A stretch of 35,774 nucleotides of DNA from Chrysochromulina tobinii. Lineage: Eukaryota. Positions 5,944-35,300 of this stretch are shown in pieces. Under the pieces are notes generated by a model. It searched no databases. It worked only from the letters and a program-made list of their open reading frames with translations, and had not been told where the DNA came from. Each line of letters starts with the position of its first letter. The stretch's first letter is position 1. Both the position numbers and the translations under genes were made by a program. The stretch covers positions 1-35,774 of the forward strand of contig JWZX01002598.1 of NCBI GenBank assembly GCA_001275005.1, in the 5' to 3' direction.

Positions 5944-8914
5944 ATGGTAACCGCATCCGTATGTACGCCGGTCCGGTGTCTTGGGCTGAGGCGGCGCGCA
6001 TCCTCCGGCTTTTCGCTCTTTGCCAGAGGATTGACGCCTCGCGGCATCGCGCTCGGCCATCTCATCGACCTGTACACAAACCCGACGTTGCTCGACCTGC
6101 CCGATCGACAGCGGCTCGCACTTGTGCTCATCGAGCAGGTTAGCCTACATCCCGCAAAGTCGGCCATCGAGCCGGGGCTAGCCGACCTGCGCGCAGCGAT
6201 CGCGCCACTGCCAGCCTGCCTGTGGGAGGAGTTTCAGTTGAAACTGATTGGGCTGACCGAGCCGGATGACCTTTGGGACCTCATGGAAACTCTCTTGGCG
6301 CTGCTTCAACCGCCGCTCATCGAGCCACACGAGATCGAGGGCCCCTTTACCATCGACCGCTCTTCGCTGCTTGGGCTGTACGTTCGGCGCATCCACCTAG
6401 CGTTCCGTGAAACTACCTTTGAGGAGCTGTGCACCCTCGTGACGCACTTTGGCCAGTGGGTCACCGCCGCGAACGCGCCCGAGGCATCGGAGGAGCCCGC
6501 AGTCGACGATGCGGTGGCGGCGGCAGCCCCTCCGCCATGGCAGTATTTGCTGCCCGCGTCGCAGCTGGAACAGCACGTGCACCAGCTGGTGCGGCTCGTG
6601 GAGGAGGGCCTGAGCGAGCTGCCGGCGGGCAGCTTGCCGCTCAAGCGCCAGGTGCAGCAGCTGCTGCTACTCGCGCCCAACGTGCCGCAGGTCCATTACC
6701 TCGATCTGCTCTGCCACCTCCAAGACAAGGCTTACGAAGACGCACTCGGGGCATTCCATCGGTACTTCGATAAGGTGCGCGCGGCGTCATCGGGTGCCGG
6801 CGCCGGCGGCGGCGCTGCCGCTGGCGCGCCCGCGCTGAGCCGCGACAGCACGCGTGCTCCGATCCAATGGGCCAGCCTCAATCTGGCTCGACTGCAGCTT
6901 GTGTTCGCGCATAAGGAGCACGCGCTCGCGGCGATCCAGGAGGCGGTGCGCTCGGCGCAGCAGCACGAGGATAACGTGTGCCTCGCGTACGCGCTGCTCT
7001 GGATGTACGAGGCCCACGCGAGTCCAGGGACCGCCGGTCCGCCCAGGACGTTATATGAGGAGTATGCGGCGGCCGAGGCAGCCGCAGAGGCGGCACGCGC
7101 GAAGCAGCAGCAGCCGGCGGGCGCGGCGGGCGCGGCGGGCGCGGCGGGCACAGCGGGCGCGGCGGGCGCGGCGGGGATGGCTGCGGGCGCGAGCGCGCAC
7201 CAGTCTTGGCCAACTGCTACGCCCCTCTCGAGCGCCGCCTCTGCCTCAAAGCAGCGTGCGCTACTCGAGCGCTGCCTCGCGCGTGCCCACGAGCTCGGGC
7301 TGCCCGAGCTCGTGGCGCTCGCTTCACAATCCCTGGCGCTGCGCGACATCGATGCGGTGGCACAGGCGCGCTTCGGAGCGCCGCTGGAACCGGTGACGCC
7401 CACGTCGGCGGCGCCGGAGCCAGTCGTCAACTTCGGGCGCGTGCCATGCTTGCCACCTGTGCCCCTCGCGTTGCCAGGTGCGCTGATTGCCATTGATTGC
7501 ATCTGATTGCCGCTGATTGCCTTTGATTGCCGTTGATTGCCGCCACCTGCGCCCCTCGCGTTGCCAGGTGCGCTGCCCTCGCTCGCGTCAGCGCAGCCGC
7601 CACCCCTGCACGTGTGGGCGGCGCTGCGCTGCGGCGCCGAGGGGTGCGGCGGCGCGTCGCAGCTCGTGCGAGCGTGCGCCTGGGAGCACTTCGGCGACAC
7701 ACGCCTCGCGGGGCTCGCAGCTTCGCTCCAGCTTCGCTTCCACAAGCCCGCGAGCCTCAGCGGGCGCGCCGTGGCGGCGCTGCCGCCGCCCGCGCCACCC
7801 TCGGCCGTGTTGGCGGCGGGCGCGCCGGCCGACGGTGCGCCCGCGCCTCAGCGGCCTCTGATCGTCGGCATCGACCTTTCACGCCCGACGCAGACCGACC
7901 GTGTGCTCGCCGCATGTAAGCTGGCCGTGCTCGCTTTCGGTCCTAAAGGCGAAGAGGGCGCACTGCAGATGCTCGTGCAGCTCCGTCCCCACTGCGCCGC
8001 GCCGCCGCTGTTCGCCCTCTGGCGGCAGCACACGCTCGAGGTGCTCGTGCGTGGCGCCGTGCTACGTGGCGAGCAGCGGCGCGCCTCGGAGTTCCTCGCG
8101 CTCCAGAAGAAGGAGGTGGCCGCTCAGCACGGCGCCTCGGACGTGACCTGGGCCGCTGAGCTCGAACTCCTCATCCAGCAGGGTGAGAACTTTCAGGCGA
8201 TCTGCAAGGCGGCTGACCTCGAGAAGACGCGCCCGCTGGGCAAGGCGGGTGGGCTCGCTTGCCCGCGCGCCACGATCAAGCTCGCCATGGCGAAGGCGCA
8301 TGCCCTCGGCGGCGATCCCCTCAATGCCATGCCTCACGCCCTCACGGCCATCGCGCTCGCCGAGCAGGCGTCGCTGCAGTCCGTGTACGCCTCGGCGGCG
8401 CTCCAGCTCGCTGGAGGTGCAGCTCGAGCTCGATCCGCCGCGCGCGCTCGCCCTGCTGCACAAGGTGCGCCCACAGGTGATGCGCAACGGCTCCACCTAC
8501 CAGGCGGCGCAGCTCCAGGCACTCACCGCGCACTGCCGGCTCGCGCAGCTGCCGGACTTTAACGCGACGACGCCGCCGCAGCTGCAGCCGCTGCGCACCC
8601 ACATCCTACCGGCCATTCGAGACGCTCTCAACGGGTTCGTCAAGCTGCGCTGCCACAACGAGGTGGCGCAGCTCCTGTACCTTCGTGCTCGCATCTGGAA
8701 CTCTCTCACAGACGTGGAGGCCGACGCCCTCGACCAGCGCGACCGTGACGCCGAGCTCTTCTGCCGCGCCGAGGAGGAGGCGAAGCGGGCGGCCATGCGG
8801 CCCTCGGGTGCCGTCTTCGAGTACGCGGAGCCCGGCGTGCTCGAGGCGCACCTGCAGAGGCTCAAGGAGCTCGACGCCGAGGCGGCCACCCTCTATGCAT
8901 CGGCCAGCACTTGA
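5944..8914 (+). CDS. APC5: Anaphase-promoting complex subunit 5 (intron 7478-7567; apparent 1-nt insertion near 8413; start uncertain)
   Basis: Motifs SLLGLYVRRIHLAF, HYLDLLCHLQDKAYEDALGAFHRYFD and IQWASLNLARLQLVFAHKEHALAAIQEAVRSAQQHEDNVCLAYALLW are typical of Apc5. ORFs 5905-7506, 7537-8562 and 8183-8914 join via a 90-nt GT-AG intron and removal of one G at 8413. Confidence 0.88.
7115..7175 (+). repeat. 9-bp coding tandem repeat (GCGGGCGCG)n encoding AGA repeats in APC5
   Basis: About 6-7 tandem copies visible, encoding PAGAAGAAGAAGTAGAAGAAG. Confidence 0.85.
7452..7575 (+). repeat. 34-bp direct repeats (7452-7485, 7542-7575) enclosing six copies of a 10-bp TGATTGCNNN satellite; forms intron 7478-7567
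   Basis: gccacctg(t/c)gcccctcgcgttgccaggtgcgctg occurs twice with one mismatch. Units between: tgattgccat, tgattgcatc, tgattgccgc, tgattgcctt, tgattgccgt, tgattgccgc. Confidence 0.92.
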
Positions 8915-9424: not shown

Positions 9425-9985
9425 ATGCCGGAAGTGCGAGTCCCGCTCCAGCCGGTGCAGGCGGCGGCGCGCCTCAAGATCATCAGCCTCGGCGAACCGA
9501 GTGTGGGCAAGTCGTGCTTGATCAAGCGCTACTGCGAGGAGAAGTTTGTGTCAAAGCACGTCGCGACCATCGGCATCGACTTTGGCGTCAAGCCTGTGGT
9601 TGTCGAGGGCTACGGCGACGTGCGCGTAAACTTCTTTGACTTTGCCGGCGGACCCGAATACTTCGAAATACGCAACGAATTCTACAAGGACGCGCAGGGT
9701 GCGCTGCTCGTCTTCGACCTCGCCTCGAAGGCGACTCTCGACGCGCTGGACAAGTGGCTGAAAGAGGCCGAAGAGTTTGGCATGCGCACGGCAGCGCTCG
9801 TGCTCTGCGGCAATAAGTGCGACAACAAGAAGCACGAGGTGACCGAGGCGGAGGCTCGACGCTGGGCTGGTTCGCACGGCGGCATGCCCTACTTCGAAAC
9901 ATCCGCCAAAGACGGCGATAATGTGAGCAAAGCCTTTGATCAGCTCTACAAGCTCGCCGTCCTGCCAGGAAAGGGGTGCGGCTGA
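9425..9985 (+). CDS. RJL: RJL-family Ras-like small GTPase (DNAJC27/RBJ-related, no J domain)
   Basis: KIISLGEPSVGKSCLIKRYCEEKFVSK..TIGIDFGV, VNFFDFAGG, EIRNEFYKDAQG, NKCD and FETSAK match the DNAJC27 GTPase domain. Intronless, 186 aa. Confidence 0.9.
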   Translation: MPEVRVPLQPVQAAARLKIISLGEPSVGKSCLIKRYCEEKFVSKHVATIGIDFGVKPVVVEGYGDVRVNFFDFAGGPEYFEIRNEFYKDAQGALLVFDLASKATLDALDKWLKEAEEFGMRTAALVLCGNKCDNKKHEVTEAEARRWAGSHGGMPYFETSAKDGDNVSKAFDQLYKLAVLPGKGCG

Positions 9986-10785
9986 ACATCCTCGATCACA
10001 GTGGGTTGGGTAGGCCTTAGGACTCCTTAGATGCGGTGATGAAAGAGAAACATCTGATCGACGCACCAGGAAAGCACTTCGCGGTTCGCGCGCCCACGGC
10101 CGCGGGGGGGCGCGGGGCCGAATAGTTACTCCCGAACCCCCACCATATGGCTCTCACGAGACTCATCCACGATCTTCGACGATCCCGCCACGATGTGTGT
10201 GATCGCCGCAATTTGCGATTTTCCCCCTGTTCACATGAACGACCCCCTGTTCACTGTACCCGGTACGCGCGGCGCGCCCGCTTCGCGCTCAACGTGCGTC
10301 GGTGCGATCGCTGCTCGCGCACACCGTGCCGCCTTTGCACACACGGAATCGACCGAGACCGCTCAGGTGCGTTCCTCCATGTGCCCCGCGGGCACTCCTG
10401 CATCTCCGTAGGGCGCACACATGCGTCTCCCTTTCTCTCTCACGACTGTTGGTTTTTCCGCAGTCGCGCGCCGCCAACCAATCCGCCTCCTTCCCCTCTC
10501 CACTCCCGGGCGCGCTTTACAGCCACGTGACTGCCCAATCCAGAGACCTTGAGCTGGGCTGCTTCTCTCGAGGGCATGCGACTCTCCGTTTGCGATGAGA
10601 GCTTCGGAGCCACACGCCGCACGCGAGTCCCCTCATCCTTGCGGCACGCTGTAGGCTGTGCATTTCTACGCCGAGACACGTCAAGCGCCCTTCAAGCTTG
10701 CAGCCGCCTTGTGGTCCCATATCTCCATGCTGCCGAATGCACGCATGCAGCCTATAAGCCTCTCTTCTTCTCTCTTGTTCGCAGG

Positions 10786-12238
10786 ATGATCGCGACGCTC
10801 ATCAAATGTGTAGCGGAGAAGGCCAGCGCCCACAGCAATCAAGTCACCTCGGTCACATTTTCCCCGGACGGGACCAAGATTGTGTCTGGATCGGCTGACG
10901 GGACGATCAAAGTCTGGGATTCGGGTGCGCTGCGCCCTCAAATCGCCCTTTCTTGGCCAAAACTGACGCCTGTTGGCTTGCCTGGCAGACAAACTGGAGA
11001 TGCTGAGCGAGAAGACGAACGCCCACAGCAACTACATCAGGCCGGTGGCGTTTTCCCCGGACGGGACCAAGATCGTGTCCGGATCGCACGACCAAACGAT
11101 CAAAGTCTGGGATTCAGGTGCGCCGGAGCCCTCAAATCGCGCCTCCTTGGCCAAAACTGACGCCTGTTGGCTTGCCTGGCAGACAAGCTGGAGCTGTTGA
11201 GCGAGAAGATGAACGCCCACAGCGACTTCATCAGGTCCGTCGCGTTTTCCCCGAACGGGACCAAGATTGTGTCCGGATCGGACGACAAGACGATCAAAGT
11301 CTGGGATTTTGGTGCGCCGCGAGCTCAAAATCGCGCCTCCTTGGCCAAGACTGACGCCATTTGGCTTGCCGTGGCAGACAAGCTGGAGCTGTTGAGCGAG
11401 AAGACGAACGCTCACAGCGACTGGATCAAGTCGGTGGCGTTTTCCCCAGACGGGACCAAGATCGTCTCGGGATCAGACGACAAGACGGTCAAAGTCTGGG
11501 ATTCGGGTGCGCAAAACCCCCACAAAATTGCCCCTCCTTGGCCAAAACTGACGCCTGCTGGCTTGTCTGGCAGACAAACTGGGGCTGCTGAGCGAGAAAA
11601 CCAACGCCCACAGAAGCTACGTCCTGTCGGTGGCGTTTTCCCCTGACGGGACCAAGATTGTGTCGGGATCGGTTGACCAGACGATCAAAGCCTGGGATTC
11701 GGGTGCGCCGCGAGCCCAAAATCGCCCCTCCTTGGTCAAAACTGACGCCTGTTGGCTTGCCTGGCAGGCACATTGGTGCAGTTGAGCGAGAAGACGAACG
11801 CCCACAGCGGCAGCATCTTCTTTGTCGCGTTTTCCCCGGACGGGACCAAGATTGTGTCAGGATCGCGCGACAGGACGATCAAAGTCTGGGATTCGGGTGC
11901 GCCGGAGCCCTCAAAAATCGCCCCTCCTTGGCCAAAACTGACGCCTGCTGGCTTGTCTGGCAGGTGCGCTGGGGCTGTTGAGCGAGAAGACGAACGCGCA
12001 CAGCGGCCCAGTCTACTCGGTCGCGTTTTCCCCGGACGGATCGAAGATTGTGTCGGGATCGGACGACAAGACGATCAAAGTCTGGGATATCATCAATTGG
12101 TCTCGCAAAGATCACTTGATGTTCAACGTTACCACCCAGCAATTTGTCTTGGTGGTGCTGTGGCTGAACAAATACAGCATGAAGTTTCCTGATGATGTGC
12201 TTGATCTGCTCATCGAGGCTTGCTTGCGGATGCGCTAA
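10786..12238 (+). CDS. 7-bladed WD40-repeat protein (352 aa); exons 10786-10924, 10989-11117, 11183-11311, 11378-11506, 11574-11702, 11768-11896, 11964-12238
   Basis: Six GTGCG...ACTGAC...GGCAG phase-1 introns (64-67 nt). Splicing gives an intact 1059-nt frame with seven [26 protein letters not shown] repeats. An acceptor at 10784 suggests further upstream exon(s). Confidence 0.92.
10810..12090 (+). repeat. Tandem array of ~194-196-bp exon+intron units (7 exons, 6 introns)
   Basis: Near-identical units, e.g. ttttccccggacgggaccaagat and ttggccaaaactgacgcctg recur with ~195-bp period. Confidence 0.95.
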
Positions 12239-12530: not shown

Positions 12531-12826
12531 ATGCGCCGTCTGCTCGTGAGCCTCGTCGGCCTCACCTCACCGCTCGTACGCTCGTACGCGGTGACACCGA
12601 GCCTGCAACGGCTGCCACACATCCGCGCTTCCGCGGCGGCAGCCGCCACACCACATCGACGGCGAGTGCCGTCGATATCGAGCAGCTGATCGTCGAGCGC
12701 ACGGAGAGTGTGCGCGCGCCGCCACTGGACACGCGCACTTATCGGCACGTGACGCTCGCCATCGGGCCGCGTGCGCTGCTCGTGCACGACGCGGAAGCCG
12801 ATCACGCCGCCGCAGCCATCGAGGTT
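12531..12826 (+). pseudogene. Truncated, frameshifted N-terminal fragment of an insulinase/pitrilysin (peptidase M16A)
   Basis: PPLDTRTYRHVTLAIGPRALLVHDAEADHAAAAIEV matches the M16A N-terminus (DxRxYRxxxLxNGLxxLLxxDxxADKAAAxxxV). A signal/transit-like leader from ATG 12531 is in another frame (shift ~12648). No HxxEH motif seen downstream. Confidence 0.65.
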
Positions 12827-13098
12827 TTACGGCGGGAGCTCGTCAGCTCGAGGCTCCCGCGGCCCGACCTCCGTGGCCGTACCGTGCTGCCGTCCCTCCG
12901 CTCCTCGCCGGGCGGCCGCGCGATTCCAACAGGCCGGCGCCGCCCACGCGCGCGACGCGCACGGCACACACCACCGACTCTGAGAGACTGACCCACTGTG
13001 TGACACTCCAACGAGTGTCCCTGCACTGTCTTCACAGACCCGAGACAGGCAATCCGCGCAGCGGCCATCGCGCCGCCACACGCGACCACCCCCGCGCG

Positions 13099-13192
13099 CG
13101 AGGGAGAGCGAGCCGTGATCGAGGGAGATCGAGGGAGATCGAGTCGTGATCGAGGGAGATCGAGGGAGATCGAGGGAGAGCGAGCCGTGATC
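13099..13192. repeat. 10-bp satellite (GAGGGAGATC)n bounded by 22-bp direct repeats
   Basis: cgagggagagcgagccgtgatc at 13099-13120 and 13171-13192 with gagggagatc units between, just 3' of the ABC1 kinase stop. Confidence 0.9.
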
Positions 13193-28478: not shown

Positions 28479-31400
28479 TCACGCCTCGAGCAGCTGAGAG
28501 TAGGGCACCTCGGGCGAGGCCGACGGCTTGGAGTAGCTGCCCCAGTAGGTGCCGTCCGAGCGCCGGCCGCACAACCCGAGCGTAAGCACCACGAGCGTGC
28601 AGTACACGGCCTCAACGGCCCACATGCAGAGCGAGCCGATCGGTCCACGGCCTGGTGTGAAGGCAAACCAATCGGGCTCTGGTAGGTAGGCGGGCGCCTG
28701 GAGCGAGTCGCCGACGCTGCGCTGGCTGATCGCCTCACGGCCCACTTCCTTAACAGCCGCACCGACGCCGATGACGCCGTAGGCGTCGTCGCTCAGGGCA
28801 GGGAAAGCGCCGAGGGCGAAGGTGAGGTACTTGGCTGCGAGTGCGAAGCTGAGGAGTGCGACTGCATGCGTCTCCACGTCATCTCCCCACGGAAGCGGGT
28901 GAGGCATGTACTCCATCGTGGCCGGCAGGCAGGGCACGAGGACCATCGCGGCGCAGATGGCTGATGAGAAGATCATCTCCGTGCGCCGCTGCGCCGACGT
29001 TTGCTGCTGCAGCACGGTAGGCGCGATCAGCGGCAGCACCGCGCGTAGAAACGTCTCAAGAAACCGCCGTCGCTCGCAGATGACGGCGCACGCGGCGCGC
29101 AAGCCGCCGTTGCAGAGTACGCGCAGCCACTGCCAGCCGAAGGCGGCGAGCACAGCGGAGATTGCCACCAAGTCGAGCAAGCGGCCGAGCGCCGAGCCGA
29201 GCACGAGCAACGCGAGCGCGCGCAGGGTGGCATCCGCCGTGAAGTAGACGGCCATGAGGGCGTTCACTTGGGCGGAGCGTACGTACTCGTCGCGCACTCG
29301 GAGGCCGGCTGAGGTGGCCTCGCTTGTGGTGAGGTCGGTCAGGCTGAGCACAAGCGTCGCGAAGGAGACGAGCGCCGAAACCAACACGATCGGCTGCTCG
29401 TGCCGCACCTTAAGGTACTCGTTGTCATCGCAGTAGATGAGGACCAGGACCACCATCGGGCCGCACTGGAGGATGGACGTGGTCGCCGCGAGCAACCCAT
29501 ATTTGGGCGACTCACGCTTCTGCGACAGGGCCGAGCGGAAGGCCTCGACGGGCACGGCGAGTCCGACGCTATTGACCGTGCTTTCGGCGAGGGCCACAAC
29601 CAAGCTTGGATTTGGTCTGTCTTGAGGACTTAGATTTGGCTGCATCTGGACTGTCTTGAGGACCCTCGGCGGTGAAGCGCCTCTGGGGCCGTGCAGCGCC
29701 ACTGGGGCGACGGCTGGGGTCGACGGCAGTTTGGGGAGACGGGCCTTGGCTGAGGCATGCTGCACGGGCCTCGCGCCCGCAAGTCTCGCCTCCTCGCTCG
29801 CCAGCTGGTGCACGGAGAGCGCGCCCACCTCGGCGGCTGTGAACCAGTCAGGGTCCGATCCATAGCAGATGAGCTTGCGCCACGGCGTCTCGCCGTTGAG
29901 GTCGGTGTATTGGCCAGCGCGCCAGCCGCCGTCGCCTTGCAAATGCCACGAGAGCCGCTGCGGGTCGCGCGGGTTCATCGAATCCGCGCGGTACTGCTGC
30001 AGCTCGCTATTCGGCGCAAAGCCAAACGAGTAACCGTCAGTGCGGTACCACCAGACGCCGTTGTGCTCGTGCGGCTCGTTGTGAGGCGTGCGACGAAGCA
30101 CGTCGTCGCGCTTACCGAAGGCGCCAAGGGCGACCGCGTTCGCGCCAGCCTCCCGCGCGCCGACGAAGACCCACTCGGCGTGCGACGGGATCGTGTCGAG
30201 GTGGTACGCGGTCGTCGCATGGCTGTAGGGCACCTCGTAGTGCTTCGTCATCAACGCCAGGTCGTTGGTCGTGACCGCGTTCAGCCAGATCGAGCCGAGG
30301 CCCACGAGCGAGCCGTTGCTCACCGAGGGAATCAGAGGCGAGAAGGGCGCGTTGGGCGGCGGCGGGAGCGAGCGGTCGATCTTCTCGTGCTGCAGGCTGG
30401 CCGCACACGCGAGATACCCATGGGACAGGTTAGGCGTGCTGACGGCGGCCGCGGCAGCAGAGCTCGGATGTTGATACGTGCTGCTCGTAGCCGCCTCGGC
30501 GGGCGTAGTGGGCGCACGCGACGACTGCAGCCGCTCAGCGAGATAGGAGCGAGCGGAGGCGATCGAGGTGCGGCGCTTTGAGGGCGGCGGCGAGGAAGAG
30601 CCGTCCACTGGGGGCGAAGGCGGCGGCGAGGGCGGAGCTTGGCGAGATGCCGGGCGGTTTGAGCGTTGAATCCCGCCCGCGCCGATGCGCGTGGCGGGGG
30701 GGCTCGATGAGAGCCAACGGCTCTCGTCGCCGGGCGCCAAAGAGTACTCCTCGGCGCCGTAGCGTGAGGTGTAGTAGAGCATCTTGGTCCACGCACCAAC
30801 GCCCAGAGCGGTGCCCACACGGTAGCCTCCGAGCCCATGTAGACCCCAGCTCAGGCGTGCTGGGTCCGACTCGTTGGACGCATCCACCAGGTAGCCACGC
30901 TTGCCCACGTCTGGAGAGGCCGCGAAGCCAAAGGAGGCGTCGTCAGTGCGGTACCACCAGACGCCGTTGTGCTCGTGTGCGACGTGCTTCTCTGTCCGCG
31001 GATCGAGATGCGTCCGACGCACCACCTCCTCGCGCCGACCAAAGGCTCCGACAGCGATCGTGGAGGATCCTTGGCGGTACGCGCCGACGAAGACCCACTT
31101 GGCGTCCGCCGGGATCGAGTCGAGCTCGTCGCCGCTCGTCGCATGGCTATACGGCTCGTCGTAGTATGTGGTCATGCCAGACAGATCCTCGAGCGCGAGC
31201 GCGTTCACGAGCACGCCCTGCTGGAGTGGGAATTTCATCAGCAGCTGCCCATCGGGCCCCTCGATGCGATACGGATGCTCCTCGCGCTCCTCGTCGAACA
31301 GCGAGGGCGGGCTCGGTGGCGGGCTTGGCGGCGGCGAGGGCTCGGGGGCGGGGCGGGGGCCAAAGGCGACGGTGGAGCGTTCCTTCTGCGTGAACGTCTG

Positions 31401-32318
31401 ATCGACAAGCTCGACAACCGTGCCCTTTTTGCTGAGCTTGGCCAAGCGAACAGTGTCACCCACCTCGGGCCGCAGCACGGGCGTCTGCCTGTCGTACGCG
31501 GTGTACATACGGGTGGCTAGGGCCGCCACCACGAGCACAAAGACCGCGGCGGTCGCAAAGGCCACCTGGCTTGCGAGCACGAAGCTCCAGATCATCAGTA
31601 CGCTGGTTGTGAGAGCGGCGAGATGCACCAGGCCTCCCATGAGCAGTTTCAAGCGCCACAGCACACCGCCGCCGCCGCCGCCGCCGCCGCTCTCTAACGA
31701 GTCCGCAAACCCGCTCATCTCCGGCGAGCTCGGGCGGGCGTTGGCGCCGAAACGGAAGCGCGCCATCAGGTCGTCGACGAGCTTGCCCAGCAGCGCGAGC
31801 ACCACGACCACGCCGATGCCATACGCGACCCCGAATGTCGCACCGAGACGTAAACTGACCGCCGGCGCCGCGGTGCACACACATGGCGATTGGAAAGGCA
31901 TGCCCACCGCATCGATGCTCTGCCCGTCGTAGCAGTCCCACGAGCCTAGCTCGGGCAGGTACAGGTACATGGCGCCTTCGCAGGCCTCGTCGAGGTGGGC
32001 GAGGCTCTCGGTGGGCAGCTGATAGTGCGAGCTGAGCGCGTTGACCACTTTGGCGGAGGCCATCTCCCGCGTTGTGATGTACTCGTCCGCATCGTAAAAG
32101 ATCGGTGGTGCAAGCGCACGCGCGCGCGCGGCGAGCGCGATCGGCAGCCGGAAGAGTTCTGTGTAGCTGCCGCATGCCTCGGCGCAGGACTCGCCCGGCT
32201 TCGTCAGGTGCCAGCAGCGCGCGTCGACCATCTCGCCTTGCAGGCAGAGTTCAGAGTCCAGTGAGATGAGCGGTGGCGGGTTGGGGGGTTTCGGGCTTGG
32301 AGGTGGCGCGGGCGGCGC
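28479..32318 (-). CDS. C-terminal part of a giant kinesin fusion: Cys-rich module, TM helices, two copies of an unnamed ~130-aa domain, XK-like multi-pass membrane region
   Basis: The 1250-aa ORF frame extends upstream of ATG 32231 as APPAPPPSPKPPNPPPLISLDSELCLQGEM to the G7 run at 32319-32325. Many hydrophobic segments. Confidence 0.75.
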   Translation of the reverse strand, partial: APPAPPPSPKPPNPPPLISLDSELCLQGEMVDARCWHLTKPGESCAEACGSYTELFRLPIALAARARALAPPIFYDADEYITTREMASAKVVNALSSHYQLPTESLAHLDEACEGAMYLYLPELGSWDCYDGQSIDAVGMPFQSPCVCTAAPAVSLRLGATFGVAYGIGVVVVLALLGKLVDDLMARFRFGANARPSSPEMSGFADSLESGGGGGGGGVLWRLKLLMGGLVHLAALTTSVLMIWSFVLASQVAFATAAVFVLVVAALATRMYTAYDRQTPVLRPEVGDTVRLAKLSKKGTVVELVDQTFTQKERSTVAFGPRPAPEPSPPPSPPPSPPSLFDEEREEHPYRIEGPDGQLLMKFPLQQGVLVNALALEDLSGMTTYYDEPYSHATSGDELDSIPADAKWVFVGAYRQGSSTIAVGAFGRREEVVRRTHLDPRTEKHVAHEHNGVWWYRTDDASFGFAASPDVGKRGYLVDASNESDPARLSWGLHGLGGYRVGTALGVGAWTKMLYYTSRYGAEEYSLAPGDESRWLSSSPPATRIGAGGIQRSNRPASRQAPPSPPPSPPVDGSSSPPPSKRRTSIASARSYLAERLQSSRAPTTPAEAATSSTYQHPSSAAAAAVSTPNLSHGYLACAASLQHEKIDRSLPPPPNAPFSPLIPSVSNGSLVGLGSIWLNAVTTNDLALMTKHYEVPYSHATTAYHLDTIPSHAEWVFVGAREAGANAVALGAFGKRDDVLRRTPHNEPHEHNGVWWYRTDGYSFGFAPNSELQQYRADSMNPRDPQRLSWHLQGDGGWRAGQYTDLNGETPWRKLICYGSDPDWFTAAEVGALSVHQLASEEARLAGARPVQHASAKARLPKLPSTPAVAPVALHGPRGASPPRVLKTVQMQPNLSPQDRPNPSLVVALAESTVNSVGLAVPVEAFRSALSQKRESPKYGLLAATTSILQCGPMVVLVLIYCDDNEYLKVRHEQPIVLVSALVSFATLVLSLTDLTTSEATSAGLRVRDEYVRSAQVNALMAVYFTADATLRALALLVLGSALGRLLDLVAISAVLAAFGWQWLRVLCNGGLRAACAVICERRRFLETFLRAVLPLIAPTVLQQQTSAQRRTEMIFSSAICAAMVLVPCLPATMEYMPHPLPWGDDVETHAVALLSFALAAKYLTFALGAFPALSDDAYGVIGVGAAVKEVGREAISQRSVGDSLQAPAYLPEPDWFAFTPGRGPIGSLCMWAVEAVYCTLVVLTLGLCGRRSDGTYWGSYSKPSASPEVPYSQLLEA
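29860..31200 (-). repeat. Internal duplicated domain (copies ~30770-31200 and ~29860-30280)
   Basis: Both copies have Y..PYSHAT....LD.IP..A.WVFVGA...GAFG.R..V.RRT...HEHNGVWWYRTD..SFGFA...DP.RLSW.L.G.GG.R.G. A 37-bp identical DNA stretch lies at 30035-30071 and 30941-30977. Confidence 0.9.
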
Positions 32319-35300
32319 GGGGGGGCGGCAGTGGCGGGAAGGTATAACCTCCGAGGGGCATTTCGAGGTACGGCAGCCAGGGCGCCGGTAGCACGCCCGC
32401 GACGGCGCTGGGCACTGTGCCCGGCATGCTCCAGAGCGCGACGCGTAGCCCGATCAGTCCGCCGCAGAGGAGCATCACGATCCACACGAGTGGAGACTGC
32501 AGAAATGGCCGCACAGCATTCCCCACAGCCTGCACCGCGCCGATCATGCGCCTCCATGCCCGGTACAAGGGACTGGCCTCGCGCGCGGCCTTTTCGGCCT
32601 TAGCACGCTTCTTGAGCGTTGCTGCGCTCGGACCATCCACAACGGCCTCCTTGTGCGCCTGCTCCGCTTGGGCCTCGAGGCATCTGCGCACCACGTGCGC
32701 GATGATGAGGAGCGCCATCAGCCCGAGCGCAAAGAGGAGCTGGTATGGCGGCAGCGCGGCGGTCAACAGCGGAATGAGCTCGGGCGGCGAAGGCGGCGCC
32801 GGGAGGCATTTGCACGGGCTGCGCGCGTGCAGCCCCGCAGGCGGGGGATCCGTGGGCTTCAGGTTGGCAAAGCAGTGCCAGAGCGATGGCGCCGTCGGAC
32901 CCGTCTTGTAGAGCAGCGTGAGTCCAGCACACGTGGAGGCTTCATCGACGGCCACATGCTCATACGAGGCGCTGTCCCACCCAGAAAGGGGAAGCATGCC
33001 CGCAAGGGTCAGCTCGTTCAGGCATGCGACTACCGCAGGCCGACCGCTGCCAACGGACGTCGCCTCTTCGTCGAACCCGCCCATGGACGCACACGCGGCC
33101 GTGCAAGACTCATCCTCCTTGGCAAGTAGCCAGCACTCGTCGCCCACGGCAGCGCCACCGCCGGGGCACGGGTGGGCCTCCCGCCACTCGGCGCACTGTG
33201 CGGCCCAGGTAAAGGCGGGCGGCGGCGGCGGTGGGCGCGGGTGGATTCTCGCATCGTAGTAGCCGTACATCGCAAGCGTCTGCCAGACGAGGAAGACTCC
33301 CGCCGCGACCAGGACCGGATGCCGCTGGGCGGAGCTGAAGAAGTCGCCAGACAGGCGCTCCGCCATCTCGGCCAGCTGCACCAGTATACGCGCCGTGCCG
33401 AGCACACAGGTCTCCACCCCACGGGACACGCCCATGGCGCAGGCCTCGAGGGCGACCGAGATCGCGGCGCGCGCCGCGCCGGGCGCACTCGCGCACGCGC
33501 GCGCACCCGCGAGGACGGCGCCGTACAGCGCGACGCACGTCGCGGTGGGCCCTTCGACGACCAGCCACCAGAGGGCAGTGCCGAGGCCCTTGAGGAGCCC
33601 ATAGAGCAGCTGGAAGGGGAGGATGAGGATGCTCAGGATCATCCAGCGCGTGTACAGCAGCAGCCAGCACATCCATCTCCCGCAGCCCTCGAAACAATCG
33701 CAAAGGCTAGTGCGCAGCACTGCGGCCTGCGTCGTCACCGGCTCGGTGAAAGTGGCAACTGTCTCGGTGGCATCGCTGAAGACCTGGGTGACGGCGACGG
33801 CGAGCGTCTCAGGAGGAGGCTTCAGTTCCGGAGGCTCCTCGAACGTGTACGCGTTCGCGGCGGCGCGGTTGGCGATCTGCTTGGCGCGCGCGGCGTATTG
33901 GAGCGTTTGGAGCGTCTCGGCGTAATTGGAGGCCGTGGGGGCGATGGTGGCGAGCATGGCGGTGTTGGCGTTGCCCCCGAGGGACTGCTCGAGGATCTGG
34001 GTCAGCTTGGAGGCACGATAAGGGACCACCTGCGCCTTGGAGGCTCTGGGGTCCGTCAGGGCATTGATGACGTTACCCAGTGCCGAGAGGCTCTGGTTGA
34101 TGGCAATGGCCTCCTGCAGAGTCTCATCCTGCGCGCCGCTCTTCTTGGCGCGCTCGGAGCCCGCGAGGTCGACGAGGCACATCTTGGCGAACACGCGCTT
34201 CTTCTGGGACGAGCCCGCGTAAAACTCGATCTCCTGCTCAACCCGGATGATGACGATGGCATGCGAGCGCGAAGACTCCGCGTTCATGAAAGTCGAGGCG
34301 ACGGCACGCTTCTTGTTGCCGCGCTCGATGATCTCTGCGAGGCCGGCGGCATCCTCGATCTGATGCTCGGTCAGGCCCTGCACATATGTCCCCAGCTTCG
34401 GGTCGCGGCGCACCTTGAGGTCCACTCCGCTCGCGTCGTCCACGAGCAGGTCGTGCACGATCTCGCGGTAGATCTGGAGGTACGAGGCGCACACACGCAC
34501 CGAGCGCCCATCCTCGAGCAAATCCACCTTGTCGAAGACGGCGTCGGCAACGCGAGGGATCACGCCGGGATCGTCGGGTGTACCCATCATCGAGTGAGTC
34601 TTGCCGCTGCCCGTCTGCCCGTAGGCGAGGATCGTCGCGTTATATCCGTCGAAGATGCCGTCGACGAGCGGCGCTGCGAGCTCTTCGTACAGAGCCTCAC
34701 TCGAGCTCAGGTGATTGAACAGGTGATCGTAAGCAAAGATGCTCTTCTGAGGCGATGACGTGTCTCCGTCGCACAGCGGCTGCTGCAGGCAGATGAGCGA
34801 CGGCTGACTCGGGTCGAGCAGCACCACATTCTGCTCGCGTGCCTTGCGCTCGGAGCGCGACATCGGGCGGCAGCGCACGCCCACGCGCACGTTGGTCTCA
34901 CGAGCCGTCGCTCGCGCCGTGCGCGCGGTGCGAGGCGCCGGCGCGCGTTCAGTCTCCGGCGGCACCGCTTCCTCCTCCTCGGGGCGTGGGCTGAGCGTTG
35001 GCTGCGGCCGCGCCTGGCGCTGCACCGAGGGCGACGCGCGTGACGGCATAGGCGAGGCTACACCAGCACAGGCGCCGGCGACCATGTCGGCGATGCCGTC
35101 CGCCTCTACTGGCTCGCCACCTGCTGGCAACATGAGCTCGGCCGCCGCCACCACGATGAACTGGTTGCTGCCATCCTGCAGACGGACGCCCCACCGGCCG
35201 GTCGCGGGGTCCTCCCGTTCGACAATAACGGCTTTGCCAGCCAACTCCTGCCGCGCACCCTGGACACGGAGGATCATGCGCCGTCCGGGGTGGGGGCGAC

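Follow-up and report, generated by a model that had tools for sequence, protein, structure and literature searches.

A Chrysochromulina tobinii WD40 gene built from one-blade exon cassettes, likely part of a reshuffled immune-recognition repertoire

The window, a 35,774-nt stretch of DNA from the single-celled haptophyte Chrysochromulina tobinii (contig JWZX01002598.1), contains at 10786-12238 of the plus strand a WD40 gene whose seven exons join into one 352-aa frame with a stop codon at 12236-12238; read unspliced, the array has stops in all three frames. In the product, seven WD40 blades are preceded by a short helix at the N terminus and followed by a tail of 49 aa. A 5' non-coding leader (10281-10785, plus strand, as are all features of the gene) is shared with the headless class of paralogs described below, with blastn matches to paralog flanks at 73-97% identity from ~10281, and its 3' end carries a pyrimidine tract and an AG acceptor directly before the ATG. 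The first coding exon (10786-10924, 139 nt) codes for the helix and blade 1, and its start methionine is also that of the public annotation of the locus (KOO28237.1, here P0280), a five-blade form whose predicted structure is a WD40 propeller with a helix at residues 2-14. Five cassette exons code for blades 2 (10989-11117), 3 (11183-11311), 4 (11378-11506), 5 (11574-11702), and 6 (11768-11896), and the last exon (11964-12238) comprises a blade 7 part matched by Pfam WD40 (11964-12088) followed by the conserved tail and stop (12089-12238). The tail has three predicted helices and matches no known family in the searches reported below.

The introns, numbered 1 to 6, lie at 10925-10988 (64 nt), 11118-11182 (65 nt), 11312-11377 (66 nt), 11507-11573 (67 nt), 11703-11767 (65 nt), and 11897-11963 (67 nt). 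All six are GT..AG, phase 1, and 64-67 nt long, and all five internal exons are exactly 129 nt, as the initial annotation had described. All exons and introns were delimited by splitting the array at its repeated GT..AG signals. The same annotation called the introns near-identical, which is slightly too strong, since 46 of 68 columns are invariant and mean column identity is 88%; the variable words that it listed after an AH(S) motif are all present, although the fifth blade reads AHR and not AHS. Internal exons of the gene differ pairwise at 16-26 of 129 nt (80-88% DNA identity), and Tandem Repeats Finder reports the array with a period of 194, 6.4 copies, and a score of 1624.

RNA contigs from the culture runs bridge predicted introns, among them intron 1, and two joints are exactly GT..AG: 11311/11378 across intron 3 (run X12) and 11506/11574 across intron 4 (runs X11 and X12). 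The blade 5 exon is matched over 99 letters with 0 differences in an X12 RNA contig. Joints that skip introns occur in both RNA runs (2/2) and in neither DNA run (0/2) of one comparison. The joints have short sides of 20-40 letters and could originate from paralogs, so that splicing is established for the family and in part for the window locus. P0280 retains intron 3 and skips two exons. Tail sequence is also present in the RNA runs, from which expression cannot be assigned to single loci, and contig depth is far higher over the array than over its flank, a ratio that is not usable as a copy number.

The WD40 gene lies between a gene for a DnaJ C27-like small GTPase upstream and one for an ABC1 kinase downstream. 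The Ras-like frame of the former (9425-9985) has its own stop, and belongs to a protein cluster named DnaJ C27-like, and RNA contigs end near 10045-10100; it is thus a separate gene, and no ROC-COR or NB-ARC core was found in the window protein. No NACHT NTPase was found upstream of the array in the window gene, where coding begins at 10786 after the non-coding leader, and the gene has no HET effector domain.

The gene belongs to a multigene family and its host is a haptophyte, both as the initial annotation had proposed. An exact-match scan for the intron pattern, completed for 51 of 64 parts, returned at least 133 metagenome stretches, for 80 of which flanking sequence was taken; the pattern has no match in viral contigs. 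The 81 arrays in culture assemblies group into up to 35 clusters, some of which may be fragments of one gene: 21 are headless (class A), 9 are NACHT-WD40 genes (class B, or NLR), and 5 belong to neither class. A homolog search with the last exon is dominated by long fungal and bacterial WD40 proteins. Class A genes have in common a non-coding leader of ~500 nt, the start of the first exon, and the tail; 15 of the 20 headless arrays having both ends contain seven blade matches, and the tail is reached in frame in 12 of 20 headless genes as split by two regular-expression parsers, each of which mis-splits several paralogs. Three class A genes, represented by L050 (7983-8180), L028, and L048, carry a related insert of ~55 aa inside one blade that looks WWE-like by eye and has no Pfam or PDB match. 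P0409 has a single blade, its first exon continuing directly into an L043-like tail, which would result from exon-internal crossover or from collapse in the assembly.

Class B genes begin with a long first exon coding for a NACHT-type NTPase, a winged helix, and an APAF1-like helical domain, followed by fixed degenerate blades, 2-10 cassettes, and a C terminus unlike that of class A. NPHP3_N matches all three class B loci tested (L007, L012, and L015) with E values of 1e-28 to 1e-29, and L042 has a weak NACHT match. The initial remark that no NLR NTPase was in view is thus accurate for the window gene itself, but other loci with the same cassettes do carry one. Five class B loci (L007, L012, L015, L033, and L049) have an insert of ~290 residues within the NACHT module; that of L007 aligns over 105 residues to the Tas1 (p)ppApp synthetase (PDB 6ox6; E = 1.4e-4), with KS, DLAR, GYS, and EIQ words in common. 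Homologs of the whole class B region occur in Prymnesium and Pelagomonas, the NACHT-internal insert is present in these and other homologs, and two Prymnesium parvum homologs have a weak, below-threshold RelA_SpoT match. For one class B locus the public annotation, KOO30400.1, splices its cassettes in agreement with the pattern proposed here.

Several class B loci have further unusual features. The NLRs with the Tas1/RelA-like insert lie at L007:142-3864, L012:281-3322, and L015:4315-7962, and their homologs in P. parvum and Pelagomonas calceolata have varied N termini (ubiquitin-like, exo/endonuclease-phosphatase, EF-hand, and ankyrin). At L042:2776-6642 the same cassettes occur in another type of NLR, the NTPase of which differs; the N-terminal stretch of this protein looks HET-like by eye and has no Pfam or PDB match, and upstream of the NLR (L042:3-1736) is a P-loop frame of primase- or helicase-like appearance with only a faint AAA_16 match. 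At L012:7100-8100, 2 kb behind the NLR, is a remnant in which two to three cassettes stand inverted as a block, ahead of a forward cassette and an NLR C terminus. In L033 (also L126 and L131) the NLR carries two cassettes and then terminates in a tail of a third type, which is ~60 aa long, acidic, and WW-like by eye and has no Pfam or PDB match in L033/L126. The sequence beyond this tail is rearranged and contains four cassettes together with an NLR end of the usual kind. The arrays of L015, L049, and L064 (3 and ~10 cassettes), together with roughly four fixed blades, would give 7 and 14 blades, a rule that L007 (8 cassettes) and L012 (9 cassettes) do not fit.

The internal exons of this family are uniform in length and highly varied at a few positions. 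Stops are absent from all 244 distinct exons, 227 of which have the length of 129 nt and 243 a length divisible by three, and blade positions 15, 16, 18, 34, and 36 have entropies of 2.3-3.9 bits, with most others below 0.5. In the P0280 model the residues at positions 16, 18, 34, and 36 fall in the d-a loop or the start of strand a and in the b-c turn; in blade 2 of the window gene the hypervariable codons are 11030-11035, 11039-11041, 11087-11089, and 11093-11095. With 17 exons of deviating length, a single out-of-register exon, and 12 near-duplicates set aside, selection was estimated from the remaining 214 cassettes. The scaffold has a dN/dS of 0.19, and the five sites give ~3.4 relative to scaffold dS or 2.3 relative to their own dS, values that come from pairwise counts near saturation at sites picked from the same data, with bootstrap intervals that are too narrow and that treat related cassettes as independent. 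Four of these positions (16, 18, 34, and 36) have the same spacing as codons 7, 9, 25, and 27 of the HNWD repeats of Podospora, which are reported to be positively selected and to lie on the propeller top face (PMC1805685), and these four sites, chosen beforehand from HNWD, give a dN/dS of 3.45. Diversifying selection at the HNWD-equivalent sites, as the initial annotation implied, is supported by these ratios, which lie above 1. The 214 cassettes contain 196 distinct five-residue codes, and 19 scorable proteins whose tails are identical to the window tail at 44 or more of 46 positions contain 13 different last-blade codes. By these counts there is an excess of amino-acid change at five residues per blade.

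Exchange of cassettes among genes was analyzed with 123 cassettes from 21 culture genes, excluding first blades and odd lengths; two cassettes differ by a median of 19 in 123 nt. In class A, sharing a position does not make blades of different genes more alike than blades that differ in position (p=0.67; 72 cassettes, 13 genes), and close cross-gene pairs (6 or fewer differences in 123 nt) comprise five at different positions and none at the same position within class A, plus seven between class A and class B. No class effect is present (p=0.21) among 118 cassettes, without the five from composite loci L012 and L033, which the position comparison likewise did not include, and the same 118 show a weak same-gene effect (p=0.0035), suggesting that within-gene duplication also contributes. 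Distances of the leader correlate with those of the tail across class A (13 genes; rho 0.64, p=0.0005), blade 1 weakly tracks the tail (p=0.02), and blades 2-7 track neither leader nor tail (p 0.054-0.90). As judged from these distances, blades 2-7 have lost both position and class signal, and leader and tail share a history; the scrambled cassette order that was expected between paralogs is thus what is found.

Individual cases illustrate the same pattern. L014 and L044 have two cassettes in common in swapped order, one cassette type recurs with 1-3 differences in L057, L044, L052, and the NLR L007, and a 206-nt tract is 100% identical between L007 and the headless L057. Some contig pairs have 3' flanks (590-1400 nt) that are 91-99.6% identical and last cassettes that are unrelated (e.g., L066/L017, L006/L078, L001/L003, and L024/L038), which accords with the claim that cassettes can be swapped at a locus, with the caveat that environmental pairs of this kind could be chimeric. 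Relative to L050, the number of cassettes in L040 and L018 is higher or lower by one, and cassettes are unchanged within the pairs L028/L060 and L009/L004. L046, L064, and L069, from culture assemblies, have the same 120 nt behind the last blade and different last cassettes, and are close paralogs or two haplotypes.

We favor, at a probability of about two in three, a reading in which the window gene codes for a variable sensor of ligands, with blades replaced from a stock that is spread across the genome and also serves the NACHT-WD40 genes. The near-copies of blades elsewhere in siblings and NLRs, together with the fast-changing residues of the predicted binding face, make it likely in our analysis that the gene is part of a constantly reshuffled immune-recognition repertoire. 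Blades would be overwritten by ectopic gene conversion and unequal crossing-over, and because units of ~195 nt are 80-90% alike and their exons are phase 1 and multiples of three, any in-register exchange should give a spliceable in-frame gene whether it breaks in exon or intron; small slips would land in an intron and vanish on splicing. Selection would keep the invariant scaffold and the seven blades that close the propeller and would favor new top-face residues. The closed ring would show 35 variable residues on one face, and an exchange between any two of roughly 200 genomic units could rewrite this binding face. Top-face novelty under a fixed scaffold and tail would reflect an arms race with parasites, most plausibly viruses. 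A headless protein probably passes its bound ligand via the tail to a constant partner, and in NLR proteins such blades would control a NACHT switch carrying the Tas1/RelA-like nucleotidyltransferase. A giant virus of Chrysochromulina parva has reportedly been described. In a haptophyte study, TIR, LRR, and NACHT genes are reported to be induced in virus-resistant cells (PMC12489294). A bolder version, which we regard as improbable, is an adaptive-like repertoire in which mitotic conversion among ~200 cassettes during clonal growth would rewrite the binding faces of two coupled receptor classes, with headless seven-blade sensors delivering bound viral proteins to a ubiquitin ligase or a partner NLR and the Tas1-like enzyme of the NLRs making (p)ppApp or ppGpp and shutting down the infected cell.

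The tail bears on whether headless genes signal at all. A rather unlikely alternative is that they are mainly a reservoir or decoy, donating blades to NLR genes or acting as ligand sponges; cassettes are indeed common to both classes without class signal, headless clusters outnumber NLR clusters (21 versus 9), and repeats in Podospora are reported to move among family members including pseudogenes (PMC1805685). A pure donor would need neither a conserved tail nor seven blades nor tail transcripts, and all three count against this role: the tail is under purifying selection (dN/dS 0.22 in 13 class A genes), seven blades are kept in 15 of 20 arrays, and the RNA runs contain tail sequence. Profile matches to the tail are to proteins of the WD40-plus-tail kind or pieces of them in 16 of 18 cases, the other two being unrelated repeats, and its divergent relatives always follow a WD40 blade, which also counts against a pure donor. 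Tail searches gave no Pfam family for the window tail, no relevant Pfam match for 11 aligned tails, no useful match in a PDB sequence search, and no Foldseek match at E<=0.001 in viral and PDB libraries. The model of the tail has three helices (pLDDT 77); its best score in the ESM Atlas is 0.85, to unnamed clusters, and its best Z by VIA-align is 5.8, among generic helical bundles. It is likely that the tail docks a constant host partner. By eye it contains a hydrophobic-Pro-x-acidic motif, and its end may resemble the first helix of an F-box or cullin box; a role as ubiquitin-ligase adaptor is, on this analysis, a tentative suggestion, and if the partner is no ubiquitin ligase our guess would be an NLR. 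A complex prediction of the tail with a Skp1 taken from an unrelated viral-bin contig, run without alignments, scored 0.02 and weighs neither way.

The positions at which cassettes break distinguish overwriting of genomic units from a further alternative, in which most diversity would come from RNA processing or, as has been suggested for the ROCO genes of brown algae, from exon shuffling directed by introns, with entire exons skipped or exchanged at the similar introns. The exons are symmetric and phase 1, as this would require, the public model skips two exons, and some RNA joints skip several cassettes, although these joints are short-sided and would look the same in, and fit equally well, transcripts of paralogs. 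Excess mutual information between polymorphic sites, measured in 171 two-unit sequences, is 0.044 within 10 nt and ~0.01 at 25-75 nt within the exon and falls to ~0 at longer range, with or without an intervening intron; association inside the exon thus does not exceed 0.01 beyond 25 nt, and crossing an intron does not lower it at comparable distance. In 120 pairs identical at the first variable block, relatedness is down to 0.32 by the second block of that exon; for the introns on either side it is 0.13-0.21 (upstream) and ~0 (downstream). The aligned intron distance is 0.16. The reach into the upstream intron fits intron-directed shuffling, and the asymmetry may reflect a preferred break near the exon end. 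Long common tracts of 110-270 nt mostly start or stop inside exons, and taken with the near-zero association beyond ~25 nt in one exon, these tract ends indicate that the whole ~195-nt unit is the exchange substrate. Recombination specifically in introns, as first envisaged, finds no support, given linkage that fades inside exons and common tracts that break there. Exon skipping, moreover, would break the seven-blade ring, and we consider this alternative quite unlikely.

A neutral or selfish repeat family, homogenized by slippage, dispersed as a mobile element, and unconstrained at its variable sites, would explain gene-sized copies in unrelated flanks and the broken, inverted, and composite arrays of L012, L033, and L055, but has very little probability given a dN two- to threefold above dS at five sites over a scaffold at 0.19, the lack of stops in 244 exons, and ragged copy ends with no common terminus in alignments. 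Fixed termini of a DNA transposon or Helitron were not found, the 5' ends of 15 copies and the 3' ends of 18 being ragged and nested. A small 3' hairpin was considered as a Helitron feature and rejected, as the common sequence stops before it or runs past it in different copies.

The window array itself is assembled consistently: its 1275 nt are reproduced without a mismatch in L059, an independent assembly, and none of the window array's 77-mers recurs among 21 arrays. Replicate pairs, which were pre-grouped as one locus, are collinear in 18 of 18 cases and differ by no more than one mismatch in 15 of 18, although replicate culture assemblies may share data and errors and the related loci are all short-read assemblies. 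Scrambling as an artefact of short-read assembly of similar repeats is brought to mind by a long-read study reporting that short-read assemblies of HNWD repeats are unreliable (PMC12222747) and by the 2-3% of 127-150-mers that recur among the 21 arrays (none from the window array), but is hard to credit when replicates agree so closely, most common cassettes differ by 1-6 bases and not 0, and the position signal is missing array-wide, beyond the repeated k-mers.

Overwriting from a shared pool has its closest parallel in the HNWD/NWD NLRs of Podospora anserina (het-d and het-e, plus het-r); the window gene works like this system and is not a member of it, as it has neither NACHT nor HET. To our knowledge, the HNWD repeats are intronless. 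The word intron is absent from PMC12222747 and PMC2873952. In both systems repeats are exchanged within and between family members, four selected codons are spaced 2-16-2, and the NACHT-WD40 architecture of HNWD is matched by the algal NLR class. Podospora HNWD/NWD genes are reported to exchange highly similar WD40 repeats within and between genes (PMC1805685), through gene conversion and unequal crossing-over that break within the repeats (PMC2873952), and high internal conservation is defined there as >85% amino-acid identity over 100 aa (PMC4986451). The differences are that the HNWD repeat is given as 126 bp (PMC12222747), whereas the algal blade is a 129-nt exon with a co-homogenized intron, and that the window gene has a new tail in place of NACHT or HET, in a single-celled host without hyphal fusion.

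Brown-algal ROCO genes are described as having one repeat per same-phase exon, with diversifying selection, and as proposed immune receptors in which alternative splicing of repeat exons occurs (PMC11378527). Like the ROCO (LRR-ROC-COR) and NB-ARC-TPR genes of Ectocarpus and kelps, the window gene has one repeat per exon and a single intron phase; the ROCO exons are 72-bp phase-2 LRR units with a ROC-COR core (PMC11378527), in contrast to the 129-nt phase-1 WD40 exons here, and the algal WD40 family differs further in exchanging across two gene classes and inside exons. In fungal NLRs, RelA_SpoT is reported as an N-terminal effector joined to NACHT-WD40 (PMC4986451). As in these fungal RelA_SpoT NLRs and Tas1, an alarmone-synthetase-like domain accompanies NACHT-WD40 in algal paralogs, though not in the window gene, and the algal counterpart, whose activity is predicted, is inserted within the NACHT module and not N-terminal. 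WD40 substrate receptors of cullin ligases include F-box-WD40 and WD40-SOCS box proteins. These resemble the window protein in combining a seven-blade propeller with a short helical module containing, by eye, a hydrophobic-Pro-x-acidic motif, but neither an F-box nor a SOCS box was matched by the algal tail in sequence searches of Pfam and PDB, and such receptors are not known to have hypervariable, shuffled blades.

The family therefore joins two designs known separately, hypervariable WD40 repeats of HNWD type and one-repeat-per-exon receptors, with the same four codons selected in an alga as in a distant eukaryote lineage, the fungi. Its additions are a class of headless receptors that end in a new tail and NLRs that contain an alarmone-synthetase-like domain internally, and no prior description was found in the open-access literature searched. 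For virus recognition by bloom-forming microalgae, this WD40 family is a concrete, culturable test case.

Three other features of the window are of note. The short stretch at 12690-12830 resembles, by eye, an M16 peptidase at its start, without a Pfam match, and is covered by RNA contigs with several differences that continue elsewhere, so that it may be a gene fragment. A two-copy direct repeat (30015-30283 and 30921-31207; 57 nt at 89% and 128 nt at 77% identity, spaced ~910-920 nt apart) lies inside a long minus-strand frame (28479-32453) without a Pfam match. Arrays of 10-nt units at 7481-7543 (TGATTGCCGT-like) and 13099-13184 (CGAGGGAGAT-like) are probably in introns or spacers.
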